DNA of 26,527 bases from positions 1 through 26,527 of IMG/VR virus record IMGVR_UViG_3300026546_000017; one strand, given 5' to 3'. Positions within the stretch are counted from its first letter, which is position 1; the number at the start of each line of letters is the position of its first letter. Made by a program: the position numbers and the translations under genes. This stretch comes from a virus (lineage: Duplodnaviria > Caudoviricetes). Positions 2,513-22,802 of the stretch are shown here, in pieces. Under the pieces are notes generated by a model. It did not search any database. It worked only from the letters and a program-made list of their open reading frames with translations, and was not told where the DNA came from.

Positions 2513-4765
2513 ATGTCAAGCGAATACGAATTTCACTCTTATTTGACGGCGAATCAGCTTCAAAAAGAAAGAGCGCAAAAAGACAAGAAGATAGTTGAGG
2601 TTATACTCGAAAAGAGCAGAACAGGGCTTACCATCTCAGATTATATGAGAGATGATATTTTGCATGGAGTAACTCATAGCATAAATAGATTCAATAAACT
2701 TGGGAAGAAGCATGGGTTCGCTGGATACTACATGTTTGCAGACCTAACGCATGAACAAGCAATCATAAAACACTACATGGTAGTTGATGGAGCGGTTAAC
2801 GCAGCAGACTTAAAAACAATCACAGAAATGAAATTAGGACTTATCAGCCAACTACTACAATCCCTCGCACAGCTGTCTCAAGACGGGCATAGACTACAAA
2901 AAAAAGAACATGTAGAACAAAACGAAACATTCTTTGGGTACATTCAATATGATGGGCATGAATGGCACATAAAAGAATATATTGTAGATGAAATTTCTGG
3001 CAACGTTATTATCTCAATGACAAGATGGGACGGAACAAACAAGATCGAAGAAGAATATGACACTGGCCTCCCAGGCAAATCAACGCAAGAAGGCGACAAA
3101 GAAGGAGTCGCCATTGAGTACAATACAAATACCGATGAGGATACAACACAATATTTCTTTTCAGAGGACAACAAATACGCCCTTATCGGGAACACTGCAT
3201 TTGAAGAAATGGAGATTATGCCATTTGTAGCACTCAAGGATGACTACAATAATGAAGTACCATATTACAGACTCTCAAAAACAAACGCAGAAAGGGTAAG
3301 AAGAGAAAAAGTTTTAAAAGCACTGAACATTGACCTTGTTGAAACATCAGAAGGAATATTTTCCTCACACAGTATCCCAGCAATAGGGACAGGAGAATGG
3401 AATATTCAATACGGGAAATGGTATAGACAAGACCAAGACCTAAAAGATCGGTTCAGCACAGAGGAAGAATACCACGATCACTTGGTCGCACAAAACCAAA
3501 ACCAAGCACAAAACACAAGGCAAATCTCTGATGTCCACATAGGATTTGCAGCTACCCCACTATTCATCAATGAAACAAGCGCATACGCTGCTTATCAAAC
3601 ACTACTACCACTTCTGCTCAAATATGAGGGGGCAGGACCAATTAAACTAAGAGTAGGATCACTTAAACAAGAATGGACATTCAGCGGTGTAAGAATAGTT
3701 CGCAAGCAGGGGGTTCCAAAGAATATTTATGACACACCAGGGGCTCTATCAAAAAAGAAAACCAAAGCAGGGTGGTACATAAAATCATTCTCAAAGAAAA
3801 AAAACAGTAATGGTGGTTATGTTAATGATGACACATATTTTACTGAAGAAGGGATAGGCGGAGATGATGATGACCCGATCTTGGAAAACATAATTGAAGT
3901 AGGGGATGTGAACCCCCCTGATGACACACCAAGAGAAAGAAAAACAGTATTTGAAATAAGAACGATTAGCGCTCCGCTTGAATACACAGAAATTAGAATT
4001 GTTGGATGGGTAGGTACAAGCGTAACAACACAAAGACACAATCCTGATTACCCAGATGGTGGGATCAGAGCAGTGTCTTCTGTAGATTTATGTGACATAG
4101 ATGACATAGCGACATACCTTAATGGGCTAGTAATCCCTCTAACATTTGACGCGTTCAAGACTCTCCCTATTTTTAAAAGAGATCGTCTTGCAAAAGAAAC
4201 ATTGATGTTGGTAGTTCAAGGGATAGCAGTAACAGAAACCCCTTGGTACGCAACAACTCTGTTCAAGATATTTATGATTATCCTTATTGTTGTCGCTACT
4301 ATTGTTTTCGCACCAGCAGGACAAGTAGGGTTTGCACTACTTGGGCTAGGTGTAGGGCTAGCAGTATCTTACGCATTGAGCTATATAGCGAAATTAGTCA
4401 AAAGCCCATTTCTTATGGCAATGATCACCTTTGCAGTGGGGTTCATGTTGATGGGAGGAATTGTCGGGCTTGTAGACATATTGTCTCTTGCGGTTGAAGC
4501 AACAGGGACATACATGAATCAAAAAATACTTTTAACTGAAATCGAAAACAATAAAAAGACAGAAGCAGCAAATATGCACAGAAATAAAATGGCAAGGGAG
4601 CTAAAGGAACTTGAAGACAAATTTGGGTTAAATAAAGAAAGCAATACCAAGTATCTACTATACCTAGCCTCGCTGCCTCCAGTAGAACATCCGAATGACT
4701 TCTTCGGCAGGGCATTAAACACAAATCTAAATGAAATAGATATGAAATCGCAATTTGAACTATAA
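2513..4765 (+). CDS. N4 gp53-like virion/ejection protein with C-terminal transmembrane cluster
   Basis: 750 aa; PWYATTLFKIFMIILIVVATIV followed by 2-3 more hydrophobic segments; position between gp54-like and gp52-like genes. Confidence 0.7.
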   Translation: MSSEYEFHSYLTANQLQKERAQKDKKIVEVILEKSRTGLTISDYMRDDILHGVTHSINRFNKLGKKHGFAGYYMFADLTHEQAIIKHYMVVDGAVNAADLKTITEMKLGLISQLLQSLAQLSQDGHRLQKKEHVEQNETFFGYIQYDGHEWHIKEYIVDEISGNVIISMTRWDGTNKIEEEYDTGLPGKSTQEGDKEGVAIEYNTNTDEDTTQYFFSEDNKYALIGNTAFEEMEIMPFVALKDDYNNEVPYYRLSKTNAERVRREKVLKALNIDLVETSEGIFSSHSIPAIGTGEWNIQYGKWYRQDQDLKDRFSTEEEYHDHLVAQNQNQAQNTRQISDVHIGFAATPLFINETSAYAAYQTLLPLLLKYEGAGPIKLRVGSLKQEWTFSGVRIVRKQGVPKNIYDTPGALSKKKTKAGWYIKSFSKKKNSNGGYVNDDTYFTEEGIGGDDDDPILENIIEVGDVNPPDDTPRERKTVFEIRTISAPLEYTEIRIVGWVGTSVTTQRHNPDYPDGGIRAVSSVDLCDIDDIATYLNGLVIPLTFDAFKTLPIFKRDRLAKETLMLVVQGIAVTETPWYATTLFKIFMIILIVVATIVFAPAGQVGFALLGLGVGLAVSYALSYIAKLVKSPFLMAMITFAVGFMLMGGIVGLVDILSLAVEATGTYMNQKILLTEIENNKKTEAANMHRNKMARELKELEDKFGLNKESNTKYLLYLASLPPVEHPNDFFGRALNTNLNEIDMKSQFEL

Positions 4766-4781
4766 CCACGAGGACAATAAA

Positions 4782-5612
4782 ATGAAATACAAAAACTCTC
4801 CATTTACAGCAGCAACTCAAAACAGCAGCTTCATAAAAGGGCAAACAAAATGTTGCCAGCCAAGGGTTAAAACAAGTGCAGAACTTGCTCTTACAGGGGA
4901 AACTCCAAAGGTAACATCAAAGCTCACATCAAAAACAAGTATTACCCCTAAAACAAAAACATCAAACAATATAACAAAAATTGCTACTGATAATTGGGCA
5001 CAAACAGCAGGACTAATTATCCAAGGGGTATCAACCCTTGCAAACGTGTATTTGGGGTTCAAGCAACTAGCCGTCGCAAACAAACAAGGAGCAGCAGCGT
5101 CCTCAAATGATAGGAACAATACATGGCTTGCAAAAGAGAAAATACGAAGCTATAAAAATAGACTTGCTGCACAAGCGCAGTACCAGATGCACAACCAGTC
5201 AATTGAAAGTGAAGCCCAGCTCAAGAGCCTATACAATTCCTCTGGTGGGCTGAATGCCCAAGGGCAAACCGTAGATTGGTCCCCAGACCTTACTTACTAT
5301 GATTGGAATAAGGGTGGGACGGCAGGTTTCAAGGAACAAGGAAGAAATGAAGCAGCATATAATGCATATCAAAATGAATTAAAGAAAGTTAACGGGGGGC
5401 AACAATCAGCCTTTGCCCCAACACAGACACCAAATAAAAAACTTGCAACCAGTACCCAAAGTGCAATGGGTACAAATGCAATTGGCGGCCCAGATACCCA
5501 ATCTCAAATTGTAACAAAACCTGGAGCAGTAGTAAGAAAAAAATCCTTGGGAGCTGAGCCTACAATAGAAAAAGAGATTAAAGACAAGAAAAGTCAATTG
5601 GCTATTGCCTAA
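4782..5612 (+). CDS. N4 gp52-like ejection protein
   Basis: ATG 4782 has a GAGGA RBS (ORF track starts at 4755); WAQTAGLIIQGVSTLANVYLGFKQLAVANKQ amphipathic motif; synteny. Confidence 0.65.
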   Translation: MKYKNSPFTAATQNSSFIKGQTKCCQPRVKTSAELALTGETPKVTSKLTSKTSITPKTKTSNNITKIATDNWAQTAGLIIQGVSTLANVYLGFKQLAVANKQGAAASSNDRNNTWLAKEKIRSYKNRLAAQAQYQMHNQSIESEAQLKSLYNSSGGLNAQGQTVDWSPDLTYYDWNKGGTAGFKEQGRNEAAYNAYQNELKKVNGGQQSAFAPTQTPNKKLATSTQSAMGTNAIGGPDTQSQIVTKPGAVVRKKSLGAEPTIEKEIKDKKSQLAIA

Positions 5613-7200: not shown

Positions 7201-10200
7201 ATGCCATATTCTTCAGTAGAAATCGCAAGTAAAATTTTAGGGGCAGAAAACCCAGGATCAAGAATAGCATCGGAAGATTCAAATGACATTGGGACAACAA
7301 TGCAGAAAGAAGATGCTGTCATAGCAAGAGAAAAAGAGAAAGTACAAAAAATATATGGGAACCAACCTGTAACGTTCTCAACAGAAGAAGAAGTCGCAAA
7401 AGAAGAACAATCAGATCAAGGGTGGCAAACAGGAACAGTATATTCTATTATTGATGGAGACGGAATCTTCATCAAGGAAATGGAAGGGCAGGAACTACGA
7501 GCAGCAGGATATGATGCATCAGAAGTAGAACACCCAGGGGAAGACCACACTGAAAGAGAACAAAGAAATGCAAGAAGACTTGCAGAGTTGTGGGGGGTTC
7601 CAGAAGATTCTGTAACAACAGAAGATGTATATGAACAAGGGTGGAAAGACACAACAAAATTAGCATTTGAACTCACCAAGACAAATATAAATGAAAAACT
7701 TAAATTAGGGGACACATCCTACTACCGAACACATCCACCAGTGTACAATAATCTCAACATCCCAATACAATATAAAATCATAGACAAGGGGGTATACGGA
7801 CGACCAATCGTAATCATGAAGAACCCCGTCACTGGTGAAATTGTAAACCAGAGCTTTGACCTTCCTGGATACAGGATGGGGTTCAAGGATGCTGCAAAAA
7901 AAGCAGGGATGAAAACCTCAGACTATGTTGAGCCATTCCTCGCACCAAGTCCTGGTGCATACGGATCAGAAAAAAAATATGCGTATAAGCCTAAAAACTG
8001 GGACACAATGACCAATGTCCAAAGACGGGCATGGAACGAAAGATCTAAAAAATCACAGAACTATAATCAAGGGGCGTTTGAGCATGCCTTTAAATCATTT
8101 GCCGGAACAGCAGGGGCATTACTTGCTGGGGCAGGAGATGGCCTACTTGATTATGCCTCATCAATTTCTGATGAAGCTCTGGGAACTACATTTGGGAATA
8201 GTACGCTGTTTGAGGATTTTAAAAATGAAGATATATGGCAAAGAGCCATAGGCTATAATGACATAGAAGAAAAGAAAAATATAGCAGCAGTTGATCAATA
8301 CATAAAAAATGGGGACTATGGGAAAGCAGCGTTGCACTTCGTATCAAACGCAAAAGTCGTTGCTCCGCAAATGCTGGGATATTTAGTCCCAATTCTTGCG
8401 TCCATGCCTGTTGCCGCGACAGTATGGTCTTTCGACTTACTGTCAGACCAAAAAGATGCATACAAAAAAGCAACAAACAAAGATATGACCCTTGGGGAGC
8501 AAACAGGGGCCCTGTCTCTAAACTATGTGACATCATACCTTGAAGCAATAGTTGGAGGGAAAATCCTAGGCAAAGGGGGATGGGGCGTAGTAGGAAAACA
8601 AATGAAAAAACTCTTTAAGCCATTTACAAAAATGGTTGCTCCGCTCGAAAACAAAGCAGCATCAAAAGGGTTTGCAGAAGCAGCAAAATTAGCTGCTAAA
8701 AAAATCAATCCACAAACGCTAACTGGCCGAATAATAAAAAGAGTAGCGGACGCTCCTGTGGCAAAACTTAGTGCTGATGTAGTAATGGAGATTATTCAAG
8801 AAGAAACTGAAAACATTCACCAAGAATATTGGGCAAAAGGGGGAGACACAAAATATGACTCAATTGGTAAATATATTTCAGAAGTAGCAAAAGGTCATGT
8901 AATATCAAAAGACCAAGCAATAAGCACAGCAGTCCAAGCAGGAGTTGGGCACTTGATGATGAGACCCAAGGCTGTTGCAGTAGATGCAGCACGCATATCA
9001 GGGGTCCCATTCAAAATGGTAGGGAACCATTTTGATAGGAGGGAAGCAGCAAACCTTACAAGAGAAGATGCTGCTGCACTTCAAGTAGACAGAGCAGCGC
9101 AAGAAAAAGCAGCAAACGCAGGACACGCTGGAACAATGAAGACCCTTGAAGCACTAGATACTGCTCAAACAAAACAAGATCTCATCGATAGTGGTATCAG
9201 CTCTGATATATTGCAAAAGGTCAAAATAACAAACGGGGAAGAAATATACCAAAAACATACTGACTTGGCAGAAAATGCAGTAAAAACAACCATTGATCTT
9301 GTTAATAACTTTAGTGAAGACGGGAAAAGTGGGAGAGATAAAATTGCAACAGACAATCAAGTTAGAACAATCCTTGAAGCTTCTGGCGTTGAAACCAAAG
9401 GGAAAACAAAAGAAGAGCTCATAGATGATATTGGAGTAATGACTAATGAGCAAAAAGGCCGTTTGCTTGCAATAGTTGATTCTCAAGGTACAAACAAAGT
9501 CGGGGGTTCCTTAAATGGAATTGCAGCAGACATAAAGGTAGATACAGCACAGCAAGCAGCGCATATATCAAGAGCATACATAGCACAAGCAGCAGCCCTT
9601 AGAAAAAAATATGTACGCAACAAGAAAAAAACATCAAATGAGAATAGTTACTTTGTAAGACGAAGACAAAAAAAAGTTGATGCAGACAAGCTATTTCATA
9701 ACCTACCAAAACTAATCAACAAGGCAATATCAAAAGGGAAAACCAACTTTAGTTTTATGGACGACTTTTCAACTAAGTCTCTCATCAAAGCAAGACAAGA
9801 TTTTGCAGGGAACAAAGATGTTGTAGCAAGCATAGATACTGTGCTGAAATCAAGAAAAACAACTTTTAAAGAAAGAGCAGGCAAAGCAGATTCTCTCATC
9901 AACGAGGATGGGCTAGTCGGGATAACTGGGGAAAAAGCAAAAGACATTCGGACAATCAATGACGCTATTAACCAACACCCCACAGATGCCTTCACTATAG
10001 CAACGATTGGTGACAGTATTGACTCTCTTGCCGAAGCAAAAGTTATATCTAAAGCACAACAAAAAATACTTCATCAAAGACTTGAATCCGTTAGTGACAC
10101 TAGCTCATTGGTTTCAAAATTCAAAGAAGAACCCCCCACTTACTGGGTGGGGCAACTAAAGGCGCTTAAACAACAAGAAATTGATCTCAGAAAAAAACTG

Positions 10201-11031
10201 GAGGAACTTCCAGCAGAAGAGCAACAAGACTCACCAATAAAAAAAGAACTGGGACAAACCATAGAAGCAAAAACAGTGCTAAAAGACAAAATAAATGCTA
10301 TGGTAAAACAAAACCTAGGGGCAGTAAAAACAAGAAAAAATAAAGTAAGAGAAGCACAAAAGCACTGGAAGAAAACAGGGGAACAACAAAGCAAACAAAA
10401 AGAACAAAAAACAGAAGCAGAACTGGCAGAAGAAGCAGAACAGGCAGAGTTAGCAGAGCTGGCAGAAGAGGCGGAGAGAGCAGAGCGAGAAGCTGCACAG
10501 AAAGCCCAGCAAGAGCAGAAAACGCCTGGAAAGGATACCAAGGCACAAGAGCAAGAGAACAACGCTCAAAATGACGCTGAGCCCCCAAAGGAGCAGAATA
10601 CAAACGAAGAAACACAACAAAACACAAAACAAAACACAAAAAATACACCCGAAGGAGATATTACATCGGGGGCTCAGACAAAGCAACAAACAGAAACATC
10701 TCAAGAACAAGAAACAAATCAAGAAAATATCAAAGAAGATACAAAAAATGAAAAAGTAATCACATTTGGGGAAGAGCAAGACACAAAAATAGATGATAAA
10801 GACAATACAGATACAAGCACAAAAACAAAAAAAGAAACAGCCGAAGAAACAGAAACAAACGAAGATACAGAAAATGATACAATACAGACAGCAGATGAAG
10901 CTGCATTTGCTGATAAACAAGCAGTTACAGAAGAGGATATAAAAACAATGAGCGAAGAAGAGAAATCACTCTTTGACAAAAGAATAGAAGTAATAAAAAA
11001 ATTCATAGACAACCTCCCAGAGTGCTCATGA
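7201..11031 (+). CDS. Large internal virion protein, probable detached N-terminal part of the virion RNAP, with an N-terminal staphylococcal nuclease-like domain
   Basis: 1276 aa; IIDGDG / LRAAGYDASE / YGRP motifs; Gly/Ala-rich hydrophobic stretches; acidic low-complexity tail; single Cys at residue 1275. Confidence 0.68.
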   Translation: MPYSSVEIASKILGAENPGSRIASEDSNDIGTTMQKEDAVIAREKEKVQKIYGNQPVTFSTEEEVAKEEQSDQGWQTGTVYSIIDGDGIFIKEMEGQELRAAGYDASEVEHPGEDHTEREQRNARRLAELWGVPEDSVTTEDVYEQGWKDTTKLAFELTKTNINEKLKLGDTSYYRTHPPVYNNLNIPIQYKIIDKGVYGRPIVIMKNPVTGEIVNQSFDLPGYRMGFKDAAKKAGMKTSDYVEPFLAPSPGAYGSEKKYAYKPKNWDTMTNVQRRAWNERSKKSQNYNQGAFEHAFKSFAGTAGALLAGAGDGLLDYASSISDEALGTTFGNSTLFEDFKNEDIWQRAIGYNDIEEKKNIAAVDQYIKNGDYGKAALHFVSNAKVVAPQMLGYLVPILASMPVAATVWSFDLLSDQKDAYKKATNKDMTLGEQTGALSLNYVTSYLEAIVGGKILGKGGWGVVGKQMKKLFKPFTKMVAPLENKAASKGFAEAAKLAAKKINPQTLTGRIIKRVADAPVAKLSADVVMEIIQEETENIHQEYWAKGGDTKYDSIGKYISEVAKGHVISKDQAISTAVQAGVGHLMMRPKAVAVDAARISGVPFKMVGNHFDRREAANLTREDAAALQVDRAAQEKAANAGHAGTMKTLEALDTAQTKQDLIDSGISSDILQKVKITNGEEIYQKHTDLAENAVKTTIDLVNNFSEDGKSGRDKIATDNQVRTILEASGVETKGKTKEELIDDIGVMTNEQKGRLLAIVDSQGTNKVGGSLNGIAADIKVDTAQQAAHISRAYIAQAAALRKKYVRNKKKTSNENSYFVRRRQKKVDADKLFHNLPKLINKAISKGKTNFSFMDDFSTKSLIKARQDFAGNKDVVASIDTVLKSRKTTFKERAGKADSLINEDGLVGITGEKAKDIRTINDAINQHPTDAFTIATIGDSIDSLAEAKVISKAQQKILHQRLESVSDTSSLVSKFKEEPPTYWVGQLKALKQQEIDLRKKLEELPAEEQQDSPIKKELGQTIEAKTVLKDKINAMVKQNLGAVKTRKNKVREAQKHWKKTGEQQSKQKEQKTEAELAEEAEQAELAELAEEAERAEREAAQKAQQEQKTPGKDTKAQEQENNAQNDAEPPKEQNTNEETQQNTKQNTKNTPEGDITSGAQTKQQTETSQEQETNQENIKEDTKNEKVITFGEEQDTKIDDKDNTDTSTKTKKETAEETETNEDTENDTIQTADEAAFADKQAVTEEDIKTMSEEEKSLFDKRIEVIKKFIDNLPECS
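10414..10496 (+). repeat. Degenerate coding repeats (AELAEEAE units)
   Basis: EAELAEEAEQAELAELAEEAERAEREA; GCAGA(A/G) recurs. Confidence 0.6.
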
Positions 11032-11059
11032 TTAATTGCAAAACAAAGGATAGAAACAA

Positions 11060-14000
11060 ATGGCCTGCATAAACAAAAACCTAAAAAAGAAAATAAAACT
11101 TAAAGTCCTGCGTTTAGATAAGGATTCATTCAAGAAGACACTGGGGTTCGATTTCTATAAATTTCAAGACAACCTTATGGAGAAAATCCTCCATTGGTCA
11201 TCACCAGATGCATACGTCAAAGAACTAAAAGAAGTGGTCAAAAACGATGAAATGCGCCAGAAGCTCATTTCTAAACTGAAAAAATCCAATGATGCAAAAT
11301 GGCTATTTGAGGGAATTGAAGAAACAGACAAGCTGGGAATGATCTCAAGAGCAATAGCGTTCAAGCACATTGTGGCAAATGTAAAAATGCAACAAGATAT
11401 TATCAACAAAACACCAGGAGCAAGAGACATTGACCTTCATGATAAAAAAGGTGAAACAATACAAGTAGCAGCAAACTATACATACTTGGCTATTGGAAGA
11501 GACATTGCCATTGCAATGGGGGTTCGCCCAACAAAGGTATCACCAGCACTAGGAAATGCGTTCTATATGCAGCTTGGGAAAATGCAAGTTGAAGCTCTTG
11601 CAAAGCTCCAAAGACAAACAAGAAGCAAAAAAGGTAGTGGGCAAACCAATCTACTGTCTATTAAAAAACAAGGCAGAACAATCATTAATGGGGAATACAA
11701 CAAAGATCATACACCGATTAAAGGAGAAGGGCCTGTACGGCAGGCAGAAACTTATGCAATCAACCTAAACTTCTTCTCAAATGGTAATAAGCAAGAAATT
11801 GAAGAAGCCTTGGGGAAGGGGTCACTTGAAGGGATTAATAACACAAACAATAATCTAAGAAACACAATGTCATTTGTCTCTGGGGTAAGTAATCTTTTTG
11901 CCCCAAAATTTGAACACCTTCCTTTAAACAAAAGAGAAGATCAGGGAAAACAAACCGTAGAAACAGACGGAAGTGTGAGAATAAAACCAAACAAAAAAGA
12001 CACAGAGCATCTTTCGCCAGAAGGAGTAAAAGCTTCATTTAGATGGGAAAAAACACTAAGAAGCCTAGCAGAAGGGACGATGGTTGTAAACCAAACCGCG
12101 CTCAAAGCACTCGGAACATTGAGGGGGTTCCTTGGCCAATTGGATTATCAAGGCAAAGGGGTTAGGCTAAGAGATATTAAAAATATTGCAGGGTTGACAC
12201 CATATCAGATGCACCAAATATTCGGAACATTCTATCATGAATTTTCCTCAAAAGATTCGGAAGCATCAGACTGGGGGGTTTCATCATCCAAGACAAATCC
12301 AATCATAAATACCCTTGTAGGATTGGATAGCTTTATGAATAAAAATGGTGTAGCGAAGAAACTAATGAATGAAATAGTAGTCTACACAACTACACGTTTT
12401 GGGTTTAAAAACAATGTACTTAATGAGCAATCAGACAAGCCATTCGCAAGACAAGTCATTGAAGGTCTCCCTGTAAAATACAAAATTGGTGGAACCCAGT
12501 TTGGTATATTAGTAAACGGAATGTCAAAAAACTATGGCATACCAGAGGCAGATATAGTATCTGGGCGGAACAAAAATCTTGAAGCTGTTATAGCAAAATT
12601 TGACCAAATTGCACAAAAGGATGGGGACTCACTATTGCAGTTTATGGGAGAGCTTGCAAATGGAGAAGTAGAGCTAAATGGCAAAAAATACAAAGTGCCA
12701 TCAATTGATAACTCGGTCTGGGGACAACTTGTATTTATAGAAAACCTATCCAAGATAAGAGCAGCACAAAGAAGCGGACAAGACGTTGTGTCCTTGGCGA
12801 CAACAATAGAAGTGGATGCGGTAAGTTCGGGGCCTACAATTCAAGCAATGCAATCATTGGGGATCAACGAAGAACCTATACTTAGGTTATTCCAAATGCT
12901 AAGTATGACAGAAGAGAATATAGCTGAAATTGAACCAGAGAAACTAGCAAATGACTTCTATGGTGTTTTTGGGAACGCCCTTAAAAATACGGACATAGAA
13001 GGGAAAATACAAAAACTTGTTGATCTTAAACTGTTCAGCAATGAACGAACCATTCACAAAAAAGCAATGATGGTTGTTGGATACGAAGCAGGAAGCGCAA
13101 CAGCAAAACATGATGTCGCAAATGAGCTGACAAAAGAAGTCCTCAAACTTGGAATGGAAGAGAGGATGACGAAAGAAGGGCTTGAGTTCCTAAAAGAACA
13201 AATCTTAGCGATAAACCCAGACCTTGAAATAGAAAACGTAAAAAATGGAAAAGACTTAGTGCAAACAGCTGGTGTACAACAAGCAATCCATGAATATTTT
13301 TACGATAACTACACGACTGAACTAGACGAAAAAGTGCGGTTAGTTCTTGACGAGTTCCTCGCTAAGCGCAAGGGGAAGATAAAAGACTTTACAGACACAA
13401 TACAGAATAACCTACGAAAAGATAAAAACGTAGTCACAAAAATTATACCTTATGCAGCCAGAGTAATTTTAAATGACCCAGCCCACCCAGATCATAATCC
13501 ATATGACATGAAAACAGAATTTCAGAAGTGGGCAGCAAAAGAAAAAAGCAACCTGAAAAAATACGGAATAGAACTAACGTCAAGACGTATAGTTCTGAAA
13601 GACCAAGCAGGTGTAAAAAATGTTCCTGTGCAGGAAAAAATATTCAACATGCTTACTGCAATTGTTAATGCAGTTCACTCAATAGATGCAGGTCAATTTC
13701 TATTTTCACATGAAGCAACAATAGCAGAAATAGAAAGGCAAATAGCCAGCAAAGATACAGACAACTTCACAAAAGAACAATTAAAAATCTCACTTGAGAA
13801 CAAGAAAAAATTAATGCACGATGGAAATGGTGCAGATGCATACTACACAGAAGTGTATCAAGAAGAGTATCACAACCAAGCAATAGAAGCACACAAACAA
13901 TATTCAATCGAAGTAGAAATAGCAAAAACAGCACTATTGTCAACTGACATGGAACATCAGGGACAAATAGATCACGCAATAGGGTTGGTCATAGAAGCAG

Positions 14001-17000
14001 AGACAAGGCTCAATGAACAAAAAGAGTCATTAGAGTTAATCCAAAAAAATAAGAAATTCAAGAAAGGGAAGTTCGCTGATTATTTCACAGACAGCAAAAT
14101 AGATGCCACCCAGCTTCAAGAACATGACTTCGGTACTGAGCAGGCTGATACAGGCACTCCAGCACGGCTAAAAGAGCAATCTCCTGATGTGGAAATGTCC
14201 AAGCTGGAGGAAGCAGTCAGAAGCGGGAAAGACGCATATATAGACCTTGAATTTTCATTTGATGAGAACCCCGAGAATGGGCAGAAAGAAATATATCAAA
14301 TTGCAGCAATCAATAGTAAGGGAGAAGAGTTCGTCAGAAACTTCTACCCAACTGGGGAGATGGCTACAAAATACTCAAAGGCGGTAGAAGGAAAAGAATA
14401 CCTATCGTTGGAGGAACTAAAAAGTGCAGAAGGCGCAAAGCCATATTCACGGGAAGCAGTAAATCAGGCACTTGAGGAGCTTGATGGGCACCTTGGTGAA
14501 GACTCACTAACAGCCTATGCGGGGTTCTATGCAGACTTCAAGCATATAGACAATTACGAGAACGGGAGAAAACTCCTCTCGTCAAGAGAGCTGATTGATG
14601 CGCACAAAGCAGCACTACATAAGCTCGGGATGGTAGACAATCCAAAAGGATCTACTCAAGGAGAAATAGCCAATAAGCTTGGAGTAGAGCAAGGCACTGA
14701 TAGCAGAACACATGAAGCGATGTCTGACACAAAAACACTGAAAGAGCTATCAGGGAGATTAGCAAAAAATGACACAAGGGGATCAGTATCAGCAATACTA
14801 AATGAACTAGGAAAAACCAATGAATTTCTCGGCGACATAGTAAACGAGATTGATTATGATGCACAAGAAAATTCATTTGATCCAAGAACCAGAACACTAA
14901 GCTTCAAAAAAGGAGCAAATAGAGAAGCAGTAGGACATGAAATCACACACGCAATAACATTGGACTATATTGCTTCAAAAAAAGGACAACAATCAAAAGA
15001 ATATAAAAAGATAAAACAAGCATACAAATTTATAAAAAACAATATACAATTTTTAAAATCCAAATTTGCAAATAACCCAGAAATCTTATCAGCATTAGAA
15101 CATATAGCAAATGATAAAGAGAATGTGGGGATTGCAGAGTTTGTTGCCCTTGGGGCAACAAACACCACATTCAGACAAGGCTTAAAATCTGGGTCTATAA
15201 TTAAAACAATCAAAGACTTCCTCAAAGTCGCAATCAATAAACTGCTTGGAAGACAAAAAGATATGAGAGTTACCAATATGGTAGCAGAAAACATGGGGCA
15301 AGATCTCGTAAAAACTATAGATAAAATCATAAGAGATTCTGTTGACTTCCAAGACGAAATAAGCTCTGGATCACAAAAGAAAAAACAACAAACACGAGGC
15401 AGAACAGCAACAGAGTTTACCGAAAAACTAGGCATGCCAAAACAAAAGTCCAAGCCAAAGCAAACAACTAAGGAAGTTAGAACCATCCTTGAGGAGCTTG
15501 ACTGGAAACCATTTGATGATTCAGCTACTTCCGCCAATGGAATAGGCACCCCTGTACTTAAAAGCCTTGAAGGAATCAATGATTACACTAGAGCGATCCT
15601 AATCGAATCGATAATTGAGAACCCCTCTGTAATTAAAGCCGCCAAGAAACTTGGGGAAAAAATAGATGAGAAATTGTCCAAATATCCAATCTACGCTGAT
15701 AACAAAAACAGGGCTACTGACCTATGGGAACATGCACCATTATTACAGAAGATGAAAACCTATCTTGCCCCAGAGAGAAGCGGTGATGCCTACACGCTGA
15801 ACAAACTACAGACATCAATTGCCAACGCAGAAAAGCATGCAAGACAAATAGAATCAGCCCAGATCAAGCAGATCAATGACCTAACAAAGGGTCTCTCAAA
15901 AGAAGCACAAGAAGGAGTCTTCCACGCTACAACAACCGTACCATTCTTCCATTTATTGAATGATAAAGGTGGAATCGTAAACGAACTTTTACGTTCAAAC
16001 AATCTCAAGGCAGATATAGAAACGAAGATCGCTGAACTAATAAAAGAAAGCCAAATACCAAAAGCGCATCTTCAGCAGATTAGCGAATTGGCACAATTGC
16101 TTGCTCGTAAAAAGCAACCAAAGGTTGCACGAGGAAGTAAAACGATTCCAGTATACAACCTACACTCAATCGGCTTTAGCGAACACACACTCCCCTATGC
16201 CCAAAAGATATTAACACTGCAAACAATGCTCGCAGAACCAAAAGCTATTGAGGGGTTCAAAGAGCTACAAAAGAATCCAGAATTGTTTAAAACAATGGCA
16301 GCTGTTTCTGCTGCGCTAAAAACAGCACATGACAGGGTAATGGTCAATGACGCAAACAAAAGAATGTATAAAGAAAATCTTGTTAAAGAACTTCTAAATG
16401 AACCAGTAGAAATGCACGCAATCACTAAAGAAGATTTGGCGAATGGGCAATTTTCAGAATTGAATGGTTGGAGAATTGTCAGACAACCAACTACTGGGTA
16501 TGGTATCGCAGTTCGCAATGCAAAAGACATAACAAACCAACCAGGGCTTGGCACAACGTTATCATATAACTTCGCAGATATTACTGTACCAAAAGACAAG
16601 TTCATCAAAGCAGATAACTATGTAACTGTTTATGACAGAAAAGGGCAACCAAGGAGAAAGCTTATTTTGACGCAAGAAGAGATTGATAGCATAGGAGAAA
16701 TCAGAACCCCATCAGATGCAATTGTACGAACATACTCGCAAATCGCTGCACTAGAGGAAACTGAATCAGCCAGAAAAGCGTTAATGTCTGCACAATTCAA
16801 CAAAAGGCTATCAACAAGAAAAGAAGAACGTCAATTCGCCGAAGCGTTAAAAGACATGAGAATCGAAGAAGTTCCTTGGGCAGTATCATTCGATTCAAAA
16901 AAAGATGCAATTAAATGGCTTGCACAGAACAAAGAAGCAAGATACAAATACGCTCTTGTGGACAACATGACGCAGTTTAATAATGCAAATGAAAAGATAC

Positions 17001-18154
17001 ATTTAGTCAGGATCGACATGAAAGATCAACTCATGGGATTCGAGGATGTTGTTGCATTTAAGGATAGCGTATTCTTTAGAAACGCAATGTATACCCTAAG
17101 ACAAGTAGTGAAAATGACCAAGTTGCACATGACAGTAACCAACCCAGCAAAAATAGCAGGGGATACTACATCAAACGTAGCAATCCTGTTGGCGATGGGG
17201 GTACCCCCCACAGCTATCATAAGTGCGTTTAAACATGGTCCTGAGAGGCAACGAGAAATCGCTGCACTTCAAATAAAACAAATAGACCTACGAATGCAAA
17301 TAGACGCTACCAGTAGCAAGACAAGAAAAAAAGAACTCAATGCGCAAATGAGGAAAATCAAAAAGGAGATAGCAGAACATCCATACGGAATGCTACTTAT
17401 GGAGGGAATGATTCAGTCAATCTCAACAGAAATACTAGACAAAGACAAATCAGTCATTTCGGGGGTTCAGCATGACGTAGAAGGATTGCTCAACAAATAC
17501 CTAGCCCTTGAAGACAAGGAAGGAAAAACAGATTTGAATAATGCAATAGCAGCACTACTCTCTAAAGGGATTAATCTTGAGACAATACTTACCTTTATAG
17601 GCAAGGGGACAGAGAATAGAAAAGTAGTAGGAACCCTTGGTAAAACACTACACAACGCAGGTATAGGCCTTAAAGAAATCAAAGCAAATAAAGATGTAGC
17701 CAAATACATTACGGAATGGATGACAACACCAGAAAGCGGGGCAGTGAGGGTTGGATCGGCATTGGTAGAAAGTATTGACATTACATCTCGATATGCCCTA
17801 CTACAACATTTAATGAAAAACAAAAAAATGTCAAAAGAAGAAGCAGTCCCAAAAGTTCTTGAGCTCTTCATTGACTACAAAGTAAATATGCCAAAGGAAC
17901 TCAAATACGCAAGTGATACGGGGGTTCTGCTCTTCCCATCATTCTGGCTGAGAATACAGCGATCCGCATATAGACTTGCACGACAAAATCCAGCTACAGT
18001 CGCAACTGGAATGTCGCTTGAAGCACTTATGGATATACATATCCCTACAATTTATGACTCATTTATAGGGGCGAAAGAGCACTTCTTCTATACACCACAG
18101 ATAGATGAATCAACCTTCTTCCCGACCCATATCTTCGATTTCATCCCCAGATAA
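11060..18154 (+). CDS. Virion-encapsidated single-subunit (T7/N4-family) RNA polymerase with DEDDh exonuclease, zincin (HExxH) and C-terminal domains
   Basis: Own AAGGA RBS; motif A EVDAVSSG (D586), motif B RTIHKKAMMVVGY (R663/K667/Y675), NAVHSIDA, motif C MHDG (D921); IDLE..AD..HEAMSD; GHEITH; single Cys at residue 3. Confidence 0.9.
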   Translation: MACINKNLKKKIKLKVLRLDKDSFKKTLGFDFYKFQDNLMEKILHWSSPDAYVKELKEVVKNDEMRQKLISKLKKSNDAKWLFEGIEETDKLGMISRAIAFKHIVANVKMQQDIINKTPGARDIDLHDKKGETIQVAANYTYLAIGRDIAIAMGVRPTKVSPALGNAFYMQLGKMQVEALAKLQRQTRSKKGSGQTNLLSIKKQGRTIINGEYNKDHTPIKGEGPVRQAETYAINLNFFSNGNKQEIEEALGKGSLEGINNTNNNLRNTMSFVSGVSNLFAPKFEHLPLNKREDQGKQTVETDGSVRIKPNKKDTEHLSPEGVKASFRWEKTLRSLAEGTMVVNQTALKALGTLRGFLGQLDYQGKGVRLRDIKNIAGLTPYQMHQIFGTFYHEFSSKDSEASDWGVSSSKTNPIINTLVGLDSFMNKNGVAKKLMNEIVVYTTTRFGFKNNVLNEQSDKPFARQVIEGLPVKYKIGGTQFGILVNGMSKNYGIPEADIVSGRNKNLEAVIAKFDQIAQKDGDSLLQFMGELANGEVELNGKKYKVPSIDNSVWGQLVFIENLSKIRAAQRSGQDVVSLATTIEVDAVSSGPTIQAMQSLGINEEPILRLFQMLSMTEENIAEIEPEKLANDFYGVFGNALKNTDIEGKIQKLVDLKLFSNERTIHKKAMMVVGYEAGSATAKHDVANELTKEVLKLGMEERMTKEGLEFLKEQILAINPDLEIENVKNGKDLVQTAGVQQAIHEYFYDNYTTELDEKVRLVLDEFLAKRKGKIKDFTDTIQNNLRKDKNVVTKIIPYAARVILNDPAHPDHNPYDMKTEFQKWAAKEKSNLKKYGIELTSRRIVLKDQAGVKNVPVQEKIFNMLTAIVNAVHSIDAGQFLFSHEATIAEIERQIASKDTDNFTKEQLKISLENKKKLMHDGNGADAYYTEVYQEEYHNQAIEAHKQYSIEVEIAKTALLSTDMEHQGQIDHAIGLVIEAETRLNEQKESLELIQKNKKFKKGKFADYFTDSKIDATQLQEHDFGTEQADTGTPARLKEQSPDVEMSKLEEAVRSGKDAYIDLEFSFDENPENGQKEIYQIAAINSKGEEFVRNFYPTGEMATKYSKAVEGKEYLSLEELKSAEGAKPYSREAVNQALEELDGHLGEDSLTAYAGFYADFKHIDNYENGRKLLSSRELIDAHKAALHKLGMVDNPKGSTQGEIANKLGVEQGTDSRTHEAMSDTKTLKELSGRLAKNDTRGSVSAILNELGKTNEFLGDIVNEIDYDAQENSFDPRTRTLSFKKGANREAVGHEITHAITLDYIASKKGQQSKEYKKIKQAYKFIKNNIQFLKSKFANNPEILSALEHIANDKENVGIAEFVALGATNTTFRQGLKSGSIIKTIKDFLKVAINKLLGRQKDMRVTNMVAENMGQDLVKTIDKIIRDSVDFQDEISSGSQKKKQQTRGRTATEFTEKLGMPKQKSKPKQTTKEVRTILEELDWKPFDDSATSANGIGTPVLKSLEGINDYTRAILIESIIENPSVIKAAKKLGEKIDEKLSKYPIYADNKNRATDLWEHAPLLQKMKTYLAPERSGDAYTLNKLQTSIANAEKHARQIESAQIKQINDLTKGLSKEAQEGVFHATTTVPFFHLLNDKGGIVNELLRSNNLKADIETKIAELIKESQIPKAHLQQISELAQLLARKKQPKVARGSKTIPVYNLHSIGFSEHTLPYAQKILTLQTMLAEPKAIEGFKELQKNPELFKTMAAVSAALKTAHDRVMVNDANKRMYKENLVKELLNEPVEMHAITKEDLANGQFSELNGWRIVRQPTTGYGIAVRNAKDITNQPGLGTTLSYNFADITVPKDKFIKADNYVTVYDRKGQPRRKLILTQEEIDSIGEIRTPSDAIVRTYSQIAALEETESARKALMSAQFNKRLSTRKEERQFAEALKDMRIEEVPWAVSFDSKKDAIKWLAQNKEARYKYALVDNMTQFNNANEKIHLVRIDMKDQLMGFEDVVAFKDSVFFRNAMYTLRQVVKMTKLHMTVTNPAKIAGDTTSNVAILLAMGVPPTAIISAFKHGPERQREIAALQIKQIDLRMQIDATSSKTRKKELNAQMRKIKKEIAEHPYGMLLMEGMIQSISTEILDKDKSVISGVQHDVEGLLNKYLALEDKEGKTDLNNAIAALLSKGINLETILTFIGKGTENRKVVGTLGKTLHNAGIGLKEIKANKDVAKYITEWMTTPESGAVRVGSALVESIDITSRYALLQHLMKNKKMSKEEAVPKVLELFIDYKVNMPKELKYASDTGVLLFPSFWLRIQRSAYRLARQNPATVATGMSLEALMDIHIPTIYDSFIGAKEHFFYTPQIDESTFFPTHIFDFIPR

Positions 18155-19741: not shown

Positions 19742-20352
19742 TACCAGCCTTTGGGTACTTCAGGAGCAGCGCCAGCAGCAGGGGCAGGAGCTTTGTTAGG
19801 CAAACGCTTAATAGGATTCCGTGCAAGGAAAGAGGCTACTTTATCAGAAATATCCTCTCCATTGTCACCCGCTCCGTCTGGTGTCATCCAGTGAGAAACC
19901 ATATTACGGATAGAGGTTGTACCATTGTAGAAGTTCTCATACTGGCGAATCCCAACAAGGACTTTTATCCCGATTGTTTCTTTCAGAATAAATGCGTCAA
20001 TGGTGTTATCCTTGAATTTGACCTTTCCCTCTTCACCGTTAATTGCTTCGTTACCGGTAGTGACACGCTCATAGCGAATCAACTCTTGAAGACCAGGGAG
20101 CAAAAATGCTTTACCATTTTTAGTGAAAGTAGCTGACCCTGTTCTGCTTTTTACAGCAGTTGAGTAGAACAATGAGCGATCTTCCTTTGGAAGGTAAAGC
20201 GCAACTTCCCACATGGAAGCACCATTTTCCGTCTTGCGGATAAAAGAGTTTTTGATCTCGGCAGCATAAACGCCAGAGTTGATTGGACCGTCAGAAATAT
20301 TCTGTGCGGTAACTTCTTTAGCCAGATTGGCATCTACATCAAATGTAGCCAT
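19741..20352 (-). CDS. N4 gp45-like single-stranded DNA-binding protein
   Basis: SGVYAAEIKNSFIRKTENGA and F.KNGKAFLLPG blocks; flexible Ala/Pro C-tail; N4-like position convergent on vRNAP. Confidence 0.7.
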   Translation of the reverse strand: MATFDVDANLAKEVTAQNISDGPINSGVYAAEIKNSFIRKTENGASMWEVALYLPKEDRSLFYSTAVKSRTGSATFTKNGKAFLLPGLQELIRYERVTTGNEAINGEEGKVKFKDNTIDAFILKETIGIKVLVGIRQYENFYNGTTSIRNMVSHWMTPDGAGDNGEDISDKVASFLARNPIKRLPNKAPAPAAGAAPEVPKGW

Positions 20353-20392
20353 ATAACATCCTTTGTTACTGCAATCATGCAGTAGAAAAATT

Positions 20393-20467
20393 TGGTTGGC
20401 AGGGAGGGAATTGAACCCCCATTGTATCGGTTATGAGCCGACTGCATTACCATTATGCTACCTGCCA
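20393..20467 (-). tRNA. tRNA with CAT anticodon (Met or Ile2), CCA encoded
   Basis: Acceptor stem TGGCAGG/CCTGCCA plus A-CCA; D arm GCAT/ATGC; anticodon arm GTCGG-CTCATAA-CCGAT; T loop GGTTCAATTCC. Confidence 0.93.
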
Positions 20468-20476
20468 ATAAAGGAA

Positions 20477-20504
20477 TAAAGCAATGGTTAGCACCATTGC
20501 TTTA
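20477..20504 (-). terminator. Stem-loop between dUTPase and tRNA (terminator or processing site)
   Basis: Perfect 12-bp stem TAAAGCAATGGT-TAGC-ACCATTGCTTTA; T-rich run follows on the minus strand. Confidence 0.65.
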
Positions 20505-20512
20505 CTATTCAT

Positions 20513-20953
20513 CTATCTTGTACCGGTGCTCCCTAGCCCCCCTGTACGTTTAGCGTTACTGCCATAATTGAATACGGCTGAATCATGCGTCATTAGAATA
20601 GCTTGCCCAATTCGATCTCCTTTCCGAATATGATATTTGTCTGGGCCGCTATTATTTGTAATTATCATTTTGATCTCATCTGGGTAGTCCATGTCAATAA
20701 TACCTACTCCATTGGCCAATATTAAACCAGAAACGGCCAAAGAACTACGAATCGAAAGTTGAATATATCGAGTATGCATAAATTGTTCTGAAGCTAAATC
20801 TTTAATAGCATAGTTGTCAATAACAATACCTAGGCCAACAATCTTAGTTTGCCCACGAGGAATATCAACATCTGCATTTGCGTACAGATCAACTGCCGCT
20901 GAATACTTTGTTCCTCGTGTTGGCATAATGCCTCCATAAACTGTTTTAAACAT
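20513..20953 (-). CDS. dut: Trimeric dUTPase
   Basis: All five motifs: AAVDL, RSSLA, GVGIIDMDYPDEI, GDRIGQ, RTGGLGSTG. Confidence 0.95.
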   Translation of the reverse strand: MFKTVYGGIMPTRGTKYSAAVDLYANADVDIPRGQTKIVGLGIVIDNYAIKDLASEQFMHTRYIQLSIRSSLAVSGLILANGVGIIDMDYPDEIKMIITNNSGPDKYHIRKGDRIGQAILMTHDSAVFNYGSNAKRTGGLGSTGTR

Positions 20954-21273
20954 TAATTTAACTCCTTACAAAGTTTAGTTGCTTGTTCCCATGTTAAATT
21001 TTCATGGGTTACATCAGACCACTCAAGACCATAGCTTTTATCCCTAACACAACGAGCACAATTTGTTCTGTCTTTTTCCCCATAATAGATGCTCCCATTA
21101 TAGAAAAACATATACCATGCATTCTGTTTATGGAAAGAATATGTCGTTGAACTCCAATAGAAATCAGCAGAGAACCCCCCTATCTTGGACTTGCCAAGTT
21201 CACGGTTAAAGTTACTGCTCATTTCATCAATTGTAGGCAACCTCCATTCATCTATCTTGATTAAACTCATCAT
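20953..21273 (-). CDS. DUF1566/Lcl-type (C-type lectin fold) protein, circularly permuted
   Basis: WRLPTIDEM, YWSSTT, NAWYMFFYNG, ARCVR, then GLEW..LTWEQATKLCKELN. Confidence 0.8.
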   Translation of the reverse strand: MMSLIKIDEWRLPTIDEMSSNFNRELGKSKIGGFSADFYWSSTTYSFHKQNAWYMFFYNGSIYYGEKDRTNCARCVRDKSYGLEWSDVTHENLTWEQATKLCKELN

Positions 21274-21643
21274 AGTACCTATTTATTTTGTCTAACAGCT
21301 TGTATCGATATACAACCCACGATTCATCAATTGCTGAGAAAATTATTGATGAGATTGAGTTTGCGTAGCTCCCACTAGAGCGATACACACCTTTGTCGAA
21401 CAAAAATTTACTGAAATCTAGCAGCTTGCCATTTCCTTTTAGTTCAAAATAAAGTTCTTGCGATTTTGATTTAAGATCCAAATACAAATCTAAAAACTTA
21501 CGATACCCGCTAATAAGATTCCCTTCTCCAAGCTCTACAATTTGGTCATAAATGTCTTCATTATAGTACTTTAGGGATGAGAAGTAATTCCTATGGAGTC
21601 CCAATGATGTTTCCGCTTCAATGTGCGATATATTCGGGCTCAT
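21248..21643 (-). CDS. Hypothetical protein
   Basis: GGAGG RBS; overlaps its neighbours in the operon. Confidence 0.65.
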   Translation of the reverse strand: MSPNISHIEAETSLGLHRNYFSSLKYYNEDIYDQIVELGEGNLISGYRKFLDLYLDLKSKSQELYFELKGNGKLLDFSKFLFDKGVYRSSGSYANSISSIIFSAIDESWVVYRYKLLDKINRYYDEFNQDR

Positions 21644-21843
21644 TGTTTGGCCTCCGTTTTCAACTCTAACGCATCACTTTCTACATAAATTGTCGCATAT
21701 CCATCAATCTTCTCAACTTTCGTGATAAAGAAAGTCGCACCTGGTGTCGTTGCTGATGTATCCCCACGCAAAAACGCGTCAATCACTTTCAGCTCATCAT
21801 CATATTCAAGCCGTTGCTTGTTTTGGTCGTAAGCAGCTACCAT
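21640..21843 (-). CDS. Hypothetical protein
   Basis: AAGGAGG RBS; ATGA overlap with the next gene. Confidence 0.65.
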   Translation of the reverse strand: MVAAYDQNKQRLEYDDELKVIDAFLRGDTSATTPGATFFITKVEKIDGYATIYVESDALELKTEAKQ

Positions 21844-21853
21844 ATTTGCCTCC

Positions 21854-22162
21854 TTAAACGTTTTTTAATATCGATAGAATCTTGGTATGCCACCCGATAA
21901 GTTCATCGGGGATTTCCTTGTTGAGATAGTCCCATGTCCATCCATTGGGGGTTCTTTTGTACCTAATTAACCTGCCTTTTGTTGCATCTGCATATACCAC
22001 ATCAGCAGTAACTTGTGCGAACCAGGGCTCAGGAGCAGCATCTTCAATCTTCGTTTTAATTTTAACAAACTCTAGCTCAAGCGCCGCTTGGCATTGCAGA
22101 TACTCATGCTCAATTTTTTCCTTTAAAAGCGAAAGCTTTTCAATTTGTGTTTGCTTCGTCAT
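21854..22162 (-). CDS. Hypothetical protein
   Basis: AAGGA RBS inside the upstream gene; fits the operon. Confidence 0.65.
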   Translation of the reverse strand: MTKQTQIEKLSLLKEKIEHEYLQCQAALELEFVKIKTKIEDAAPEPWFAQVTADVVYADATKGRLIRYKRTPNGWTWDYLNKEIPDELIGWHTKILSILKNV

Positions 22163-22802
22163 TCAATTCCTTACACCACTCGTTTGCTTCGTTCCAATTC
22201 ATCCCATTTTTAGAATATTTGTACCATTCCAACTCTCCATTATCCTGCGTTCTAACACAACGCACGGGAATGGGGTTGGACTTATTGTGGTAGTCCGTGT
22301 GCCCATCACTGAAATAGACGACCCACGCATTGTCCGTGAAGTAGGCATGCGTAGTAAAACTCCAATAGCGGTACGGGATAAATCCATCTACTTTTGGTTC
22401 CCCATTTTTGTAATCGAACACTTCATGGAGCTCATCGACTGTTGGCAAACGCCACTTTCTCTCATCATTCATCATTTTACAATATTTGTTTGCTTCATCC
22501 AATGTCATTTTTTTTTCAAGGGGCTTAGACCATTCTAGCGTTCCATTTTTATTTTCTCTCGCACAGCGCACGCAATAGGTACTGCGCTTATTGCCGTTGT
22601 ACGCGTAGCCACGATGAAAATGAACGATCCATACACCGTTCATATTGTGAGAATATGGGGTAGAACTCCAATAATAGTATGGAGTAAATCCATCTACTTT
22701 TGGTTTTCCATTCTTGTAGTCAAACACTTCGTGGAGTTCCTCTATGGTTGGCAATCTCCAATTCCCACTTTTGTCGCTTTTTAGGTTCGTATTCACTGCC
22801 AT
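22140..22802 (-). CDS. Tandem DUF1566/Lcl-type protein (two permuted ~102-aa repeats), putative DGR-diversified target
   Basis: Two WRLPT..YWS..W.V.F..G..VRC.R..LEW..EAN..CK units at 306-bp spacing; identical 21-mer at 22379-22399 and 22685-22705. Confidence 0.82.
   Translation of the reverse strand: MAVNTNLKSDKSGNWRLPTIEELHEVFDYKNGKPKVDGFTPYYYWSSTPYSHNMNGVWIVHFHRGYAYNGNKRSTYCVRCARENKNGTLEWSKPLEKKMTLDEANKYCKMMNDERKWRLPTVDELHEVFDYKNGEPKVDGFIPYRYWSFTTHAYFTDNAWVVYFSDGHTDYHNKSNPIPVRCVRTQDNGELEWYKYSKNGMNWNEANEWCKELNDEANTN

Follow-up and report, generated by a model that had tools for sequence, protein, structure and literature searches.

Organisation of the split polymerase locus

The IMG/VR virus record IMGVR_UViG_3300026546_000017 (Duplodnaviria; Caudoviricetes), whose 26,527 nucleotides (nt) were analysed as a whole and are referred to as the window (the source record consists of this 26.5-kb window only), encodes a virion RNA polymerase (vRNAP) related to that of phage N4 but divided between two neighbouring genes (Table 1). 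The open reading frames (ORFs) of the 1276-amino acid (aa) and the 2364-aa protein lie in different frames without overlap, separated by 28 nt, and an AAGGA motif is located 9 nt 5' of the ATG of the second ORF. Counting confirmed the claim of the initial annotation that each protein contains a single cysteine and that both are situated at the facing ends (residue 1275 of 1276 and residue 3 of 2364, the latter encoded by TGC at 11066-11068). Since the 20 other genes of the window encode 22 cysteines in 4490 aa, about 18 would be expected in the 3640 aa of both pieces; the naive chance that the window's two cysteines lie so close to the facing ends (within 6 and 9 residues) is 1.8e-5.

The split and both cysteines are kept in an independent contig (L001) that is 93% and 77% identical to the window. 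Its spacer of 27 nt contains two in-frame stops and differs in length and frame from that of the window. An assembly error or a fixed frameshift can therefore be dismissed as the cause of the break.

The 2364-aa protein matches the virion RNA polymerase family phrog_2206 (E 1.7e-30) and, in tblastn searches, the vRNAPs of Schitoviridae. Its C-terminal domain (CTD) with the HExxH subdomain (HExxH at residue 1293) and the conserved end are present. Residues 1-1000 were modelled with AlphaFold2 from an alignment of 18 rows (mean predicted local distance difference test, pLDDT, 76.7), a single-sequence model with a pLDDT of 36.5 having been discarded. The ten best Foldseek matches of this model are all structures of the N4 vRNAP, the best one being the N4 mini-vRNAP 3c2p (E 1.5e-13, template modelling score 0.43, ~11% structural identity). 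Sequence searches of the PDB revealed no significant relative of the 2364-aa polymerase. Invariant alignment columns in the polymerase domain (D586, R663, K667, Y675, H873 and D876) presumably represent the motifs A, B and C.

No family match was detected for the 1276-aa piece, tblastn against annotated phages gave nothing, and neither piece contains a Pfam domain. However, a profile hidden Markov model (HMM) built from four other upstream pieces, the window excluded, recovers the 1276-aa protein among 33 proteins (E 5.5e-8) and also matches the N-termini of the unsplit relatives L022 (1.6e-20) and L178 (6.4e-18). Judged from these profile matches the 1276-aa protein is homologous to the N-terminal domain (NTD) of unsplit relatives, and it takes the place of gp50 in the N4-type gene arrangement. 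Instead of the single chain of ~3500 aa without cysteine that characterises the N4 type, the window thus encodes 1276 + 2364 aa with one cysteine each. By homology, the polymerase is presumably packaged in the virion, injected into the host and employed in the transcription of early genes.

The initial annotation had also described an acidic tether, a terminal amphipathic helix and a basic head at the junction, all of which were confirmed in the window by composition and shuffle test. Residues 1061-1250 of the first piece comprise 53 D/E and 23 K/R with 18% hydrophobic residues, its last helix is amphipathic (shuffle p=0.048), and the first 30 residues of the polymerase contain 10 K/R versus 2 D/E. 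Furthermore, residues 391-409 form the only Kyte-Doolittle peak above 1.3 in the 1276-aa protein (value 1.6). Membrane helices have been predicted in the NTDs of N4 and Pseudomonas phage DEV (PMC13434306, PMC11445570).

Table 1. Features of the split vRNAP locus and its surroundings (window positions unless L001 is named)
Feature	Position	Strand	Remarks
vRNAP N-terminal piece (NTD and tether)	7201..11031	+	1276 aa, sole Cys = residue 1275
vRNAP polymerase and C-terminal domain	11060..18154	+	2364 aa, sole Cys = residue 3
Single-subunit RNA polymerase domain, residues 1-1000	11060..14059	+	AlphaFold2 model and Foldseek
Hydrophobic segment, residues 391-409	8371..8427	+	candidate NTD membrane anchor; putative function
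Acidic low-complexity tether, residues 1061-1250	10381..10950	+	composition; equivalent of N4 linker 907-1006
Terminal amphipathic helix ending in junction Cys1275	10957..11025	+	Cys1275 codon TGC 11023-11025
28-nt spacer with AAGGA ribosome-binding-like site (11046-11050)	11032..11059	+	
gp53/gp74-like tail plug, 750 aa	2513..4765	+	phrog_2220; anchors N4-type gene order
gp52/gp73-position ejection protein, 276 aa	4782..5612	+	position/synteny only (DEV, BUCT194); Cys24-Cys25
gp51/gp72-position ejection protein, 521 aa	5625..7190	+	periplasmic tunnel by position only; synteny DEV, BUCT194; Cys378, Cys390
L001 gp52- and gp51-position counterparts	2564-3427 and 3440-5200		

Cysteines in split and unsplit relatives

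Counting the window, scans of viral, metagenome and genome contigs together with three cultured phage records yielded 27 genomes in which a genuine break is visible. Duplicate retrievals of the same contig, loci shorter than 5 kb, near copies (L052 and L054 of L049; L064 and L065 of L063) and loci truncated within the last piece were left out, the truncated loci listed having no cysteine in that piece. Four first pieces among the 27 genomes are cut by the contig end, and the downstream start of L059, a GTG, was chosen from its ribosome-binding-like site.

Every one of the 29 genuine junctions in these genomes has one cysteine at most 6 residues from the upstream end (range 1-6) and one at most 9 residues from the downstream start (range 3-9), and all 58 cysteines in the 86,694 residues of the split chains are located at ends that face a break. 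In the three-piece forms L049 and L059 the middle piece carries a cysteine at both ends. The terminal cysteines are thus co-conserved in split vRNAP homologues, a point that the initial annotation had proposed to check. The split relatives are mostly 20-35% identical to the window, and the cysteine is the sole invariant column among 17 tails of upstream pieces; weak matches of the tail profile to S100A9 in the PDB (best E 0.003) were taken as chance. Among 24 matches in a representative library 18 begin at the domain start, and all of these carry a cysteine at position 3-7. The cultured Alteromonas phages AD45-P1, PT11-V19 and R22Y obey the same rule.

A scan with canonical vRNAPs as queries gave 80 loci, comprising 61 complete single chains, 18 chains that are cut off and one that is frameshifted. 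The complete chains contain 5 cysteines in 212,319 aa, confined to four proteins, and none is present in four unsplit members of the window's wider clade (L022, L023, L178 and P0011); unsplit chains are thus nearly free of cysteine. The study on DEV reported a cysteine frequency of 0.00075% in 191 vRNAP homologues (PMC11445570).

Apparent splits that could be attributed to frameshifts were rejected. The three annotated vRNAP pieces of Shigella phage pSb-1 contain no cysteine and show, at the breaks, single-base gaps relative to a 94% identical unsplit relative. In L119 the apparent split is located mid-domain with overlapping frames and no downstream start, and cysteine is found only in the out-of-frame tail, so that a frameshift can leave a chance cysteine, yet on one side only. 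The extra break in L052, a near copy of L049, also has overlapping frames.

Break sites and repeated origin

The breaks are located at three sites, namely between NTD and polymerase (19 junctions), between polymerase and HExxH subdomain (5) and behind this subdomain or the place it would occupy (5), which match the N4 borders NTD/RNAP, RNAP/C1 and C1/C2. The membrane-binding NTD of N4 is followed by a low-complexity linker (residues 907-1006) that leads to the polymerase (PMC13434306), and the break in the window corresponds to the end of this linker. At three junctions the pieces are 3.9-7.1 kb apart with other genes between them, and both cysteines are still present.

Trees were built on the last 800 residues (63 rows and 34 rows), and split and unsplit forms are interleaved on both of them. 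In approximately unbiased (AU) tests a common clade is rejected for the forms split at the second site (p 1.2e-6), for those split at the third site (5.4e-11) and for all split forms (3.4e-5), and is not rejected for the first site (p 0.49), the groups having been defined by break site after the first tree was seen and the model being without mixture. Judged from position alone, the polymerase would have been split at least three times, and probably four or more times if the tree is taken into account, although re-fusion or recombination could lower this count.

Further observations concern the architecture of single loci. In L017 (2059-8552), L045 (2407-9425) and L059 (5430-9344) blocks of other genes (3.9-7 kb) are located between the polymerase and the CTD genes; they differ by genome, with similar first and last small ORFs, and variable gene cassettes seem to have gained a place of insertion through the split. 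The split polymerases of L021 (6815-12469) and L049 (4762-8532) lack a visible HExxH subdomain, and C1 thus appears dispensable in some lineages. Weak hints at hosts are provided by L075, a CTD fragment of 29% identity in a Sulfurovaceae assembly, and by L076, which lies in a Bipolaricaulota assembly; both are possibly mis-binned.

A putative disulfide between the two chains

Since a lone thiol is found on each side of the cut and nowhere else, the simplest reading is a disulfide that restores one covalent thread. On the basis of the sequence pattern and of the analogy to cyanophage A4, the lone cysteines at the facing ends are likely joined in the virion by one disulfide between the chains, in place of the missing peptide bond. 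Such a bond had been suggested by the initial annotation, and it is strongly supported by the 29 of 29 breaks, by the nearly cysteine-free unsplit chains and by the A4 analogue, while for the window protein itself we infer it. In the N4 model the NTD follows the tunnel protein gp51 and drags the polymerase and the CTD like beads on a string through a channel of ~35 angstrom (PMC13434306); a cut chain would need a link. Since every cut in the chain is accompanied by a cysteine pair, ejection appears to depend on covalent continuity. That the N4 vRNAP lacks cysteine has been regarded as necessary for its passage across the periplasm, and for the threading of this 380-kDa enzyme through a 35-angstrom channel there is so far a model only; the splits represent natural experiments and also mark true domain borders.

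The two genes would be translated separately, as indicated by the gene structure in the window and by the two polypeptides on AD45 gels. During head assembly the tail helix of the first piece may dock on the start of the second, comparable to gp27 and gp26 of A4. The cysteine pair would presumably be oxidised after lysis or via host catalysts, because a thioredoxin gene was found only in AD45 and no glutaredoxin above the cut-off. At infection, according to the N4 model, the NTD would then enter behind a gp51-like tunnel protein with the polymerase in tow, both passing the narrow channel as a single thread, and the absence of other cysteines may avoid wrong pairings in the periplasm. The cytoplasm is a reducing environment. 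As the last and least supported step the bond might be reduced there and the pieces might possibly part.

The electrostatic docking of the halves proposed by the initial annotation does not hold in general. Only 15 of the 29 junctions combine an acidic tail with a basic head, and the last 30 residues of the window's 1276-aa piece have a net charge of only -1, so that charge complementarity was rejected as a general rule. Co-folding of the first 200 residues of the second piece with the last 60 residues of the first gave 0.31 and 0.21 (mark 0.32), values that were counted neither for nor against a contact.

A number of observations weigh against the disulfide. Virions are assembled in the reducing cytoplasm, and searches for phage-encoded redox proteins in 18 records (15 of them split, several partial) detected a thioredoxin gene in AD45 only, no glutaredoxin above the cut-off and no Erv, the latter search being without positive control. 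The residues flanking the junction cysteines are not conserved, and a significantly amphipathic tail is found at only 7 of 29 junctions, which are, moreover, mutually related and thus do not represent 29 independent events. The exclusion of cysteine is not absolute either: the window's gp51- and gp52-position proteins carry two each, 2 of the 18 N-terminally intact representatives carry an extra one, and among the six fragment matches two have internal cysteines and one has a cysteine near its end. The two separate bands of AD45 would argue against the bond if the gel was non-reducing, the conditions not having been found in the accessible text or supplement (PMC3821669). Finally, the disulfide is deduced for vRNAPs generally from sequence and analogy, and no homology to the analogue was detected: five vRNAP HMMs gave no match on A4 gp26 or gp27, and A4 can therefore serve as an analogy only.

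Alternative explanations

Alternatively, one chain could still be made by recoding, i.e. by readthrough, frameshifting or ribosome hopping between matched cysteine codons, or the breaks could be sequence errors. GenBank labels the AD45 region as 'potential frameshift', one survey guessed at gene-calling error or readthrough (PMC10654107), and the cysteine codons are identical at 17 of the 29 junctions. However, they differ at the other 12 and the spacing between them ranges from 11 to 43 nt, covering all three frames, or amounts to 3.9-7.1 kb with intervening genes at three junctions, which makes recoding unlikely. Taking furthermore into account that the frame differs between the window and L001 and that the AD45 stop was resequenced and two polypeptides were seen (PMC3821669), this explanation is largely refuted and we give it hardly any credence. 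Only slightly less improbable appears a thioester-based ligation by the cysteine pair as in protein trans-splicing, which would result in an amide or thioester link. Cysteines on both sides of a junction are typical of intein chemistry, but the absence of any Pfam domain from both pieces, the variable cysteine positions (3-9 from the start, 1-6 from the end) and the two bands of AD45 (PMC3821669) speak against it. A split intein was rejected, as no HINT halves were detected (no Pfam match in either piece) and the ends reach only a few residues past the cysteine. A metal such as zinc bound by the two thiols across the junction, alone or together with a second copy, would not need any oxidation and could form in the reducing cytoplasm during assembly; with about four vRNAP copies per N4 virion (PMC13434306) four thiols could meet. 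Due to the lack of a conserved second ligand beside either cysteine, and given the plain disulfide that A4 has for the same pattern (PMC12002296), we consider a metal bridge unlikely.

A further proposal, in line with the initial annotation, accepts the disulfide and assigns it a regulatory role, in that reduction in the cytoplasm would detach the polymerase from its membrane module at the first site or from the inhibitory CTD at the second. Such a release makes chemical sense, but we regard the switch as possible and rather doubtful. The junction would finish behind the tether in the reducing cytoplasm, the repeated origins suggest some advantage, and the CTD inhibits the N4 polymerase (PMC13434306), so that release at the second site could activate the enzyme and a regulatory gain is most plausible there. 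On the other hand, what is released would differ between the three break sites, of which one lies within the CTD, unsplit relatives interleaved with the split ones in the tree manage without a switch, the polymerase of the N4 model stays attached to the membrane as it draws in the genome (PMC13434306), and non-covalent docking could outlast reduction. It is equally tentative to suppose that podophages repeatedly replaced peptide linkers in the injected thread by terminal disulfides, and that the bond in split vRNAPs represents a redox timer, which stays closed in the virion and in the periplasm. Host reductants might then cut the bond on arrival, thereby detaching the polymerase from the membrane or lifting the inhibition by the CTD and starting early transcription, a scenario that we advance with the same reserve.

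Neighbouring genes in the window

The polymerase genes are located after gp53-, gp52- and gp51-type genes, as in the N4 ejection operon, and the 215-, 300- and 750-aa window genes match neighbours in BUCT194 and DEV. The 750-aa protein matched a 724-aa protein of BUCT194 (E 9e-6) and DEV gp74 (E 0.002) in BLASTP searches, gp74 being described as the plug (PMC13434306). No family match was detected for the 521-aa gp51-position protein. Cys24-Cys25 of the gp52-position protein and Cys378/Cys390 of the gp51-position protein are kept in L001 at 61% and 40% identity, whereas 23 of the 25 listed gp51-position proteins lack cysteine. These residues could close a loop within the protein, provide a further link among the ejection proteins or make up a metal site of four cysteines.

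Two tandem ORFs (57-434, 125 aa, and 445-840, 131 aa) that precede the gp55-like gene have similar N-termini and no family match, and possibly encode paralogous head proteins. On the minus strand, several ORFs with Lcl_C-like (PF07603) repeats were detected at 20953-22802 (E 6e-39 for a 220-aa ORF), and L001 carries a longer array of similar ORFs (20122-22112).

Comparison with known systems

The initial annotation knew of no description of such an arrangement. This stands in part: our literature search, which did not reach most subscription papers, found no statement of a cysteine rule in vRNAPs. The split itself has been published for AD45, and for A4 a disulfide that joins two ejection proteins end to end. 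Thus, the split and the type of bond are already known, and it is the convergent cysteine rule for vRNAPs that was not found in print. A survey published in 2023 ascribed such splits to gene-calling error or readthrough and removed proteins of less than 2500 aa (PMC10654107), as a consequence of which it would miss most of the split clade, and the R22Y paper names only the 2083-aa piece as vRNAP (PMC11705849).

In purified virions of cyanophage A4 (Anabaena phage A-4L) cryo-electron microscopy revealed a bond between gp27 Cys1715 and gp26 Cys5, with the terminal helix of gp27 lodged in a cleft of gp26 (PMC12002296). The two genes are adjacent in the A4 genome with 5 nt between them, Cys1715 is the sole cysteine of gp27 (1717 aa) and located 3 residues from its end, and Cys5 is the sole cysteine of gp26. 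Both systems therefore share adjacent, co-oriented genes for large ejection proteins with lone cysteines at the facing ends. They differ in that the A4 paper reports a single contact, with no rule tied to gene fission and no mention of an RNA polymerase (PMC12002296). Beside the gp27-gp26 pair, A4 gp28 (L180 25321-28497) contains only two cysteines, in a CxxC motif near its C-terminus (1036, 1039).

The window shares the polymerase fold, the HExxH domain, the conserved C-terminus, the gene order, the acidic linker and the general scarcity of cysteine with N4 gp50 and DEV gp71 (PMC13434306, PMC11445570). In contrast to these single chains it encodes two, each with one terminal cysteine.

Among cultured phages, the vRNAP of the Alteromonas phages AD45-P1 to P4 is genuinely split (PMC3821669) and has its lone cysteines at the ends that face each other, namely residue 2479 of the 2481-aa piece and residue 4 of the 1409-aa piece in AD45-P1; the corresponding residues of PT11-V19 are Cys997 and Cys6. 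The break in AD45 is located between polymerase and CTD and elsewhere in the tree, whereas PT11-V19 and R22Y are broken at the same site as the window, between NTD and polymerase. In 2013 the AD45 stop codon was verified by PCR, polypeptides of 270 and 175 kDa were observed, and the authors, who mentioned the two cysteines, concluded that the protein is not injected (PMC3821669). If the cysteines join the pieces as proposed here, this published reading would be reversed, and the AD45 polymerase would be injected.

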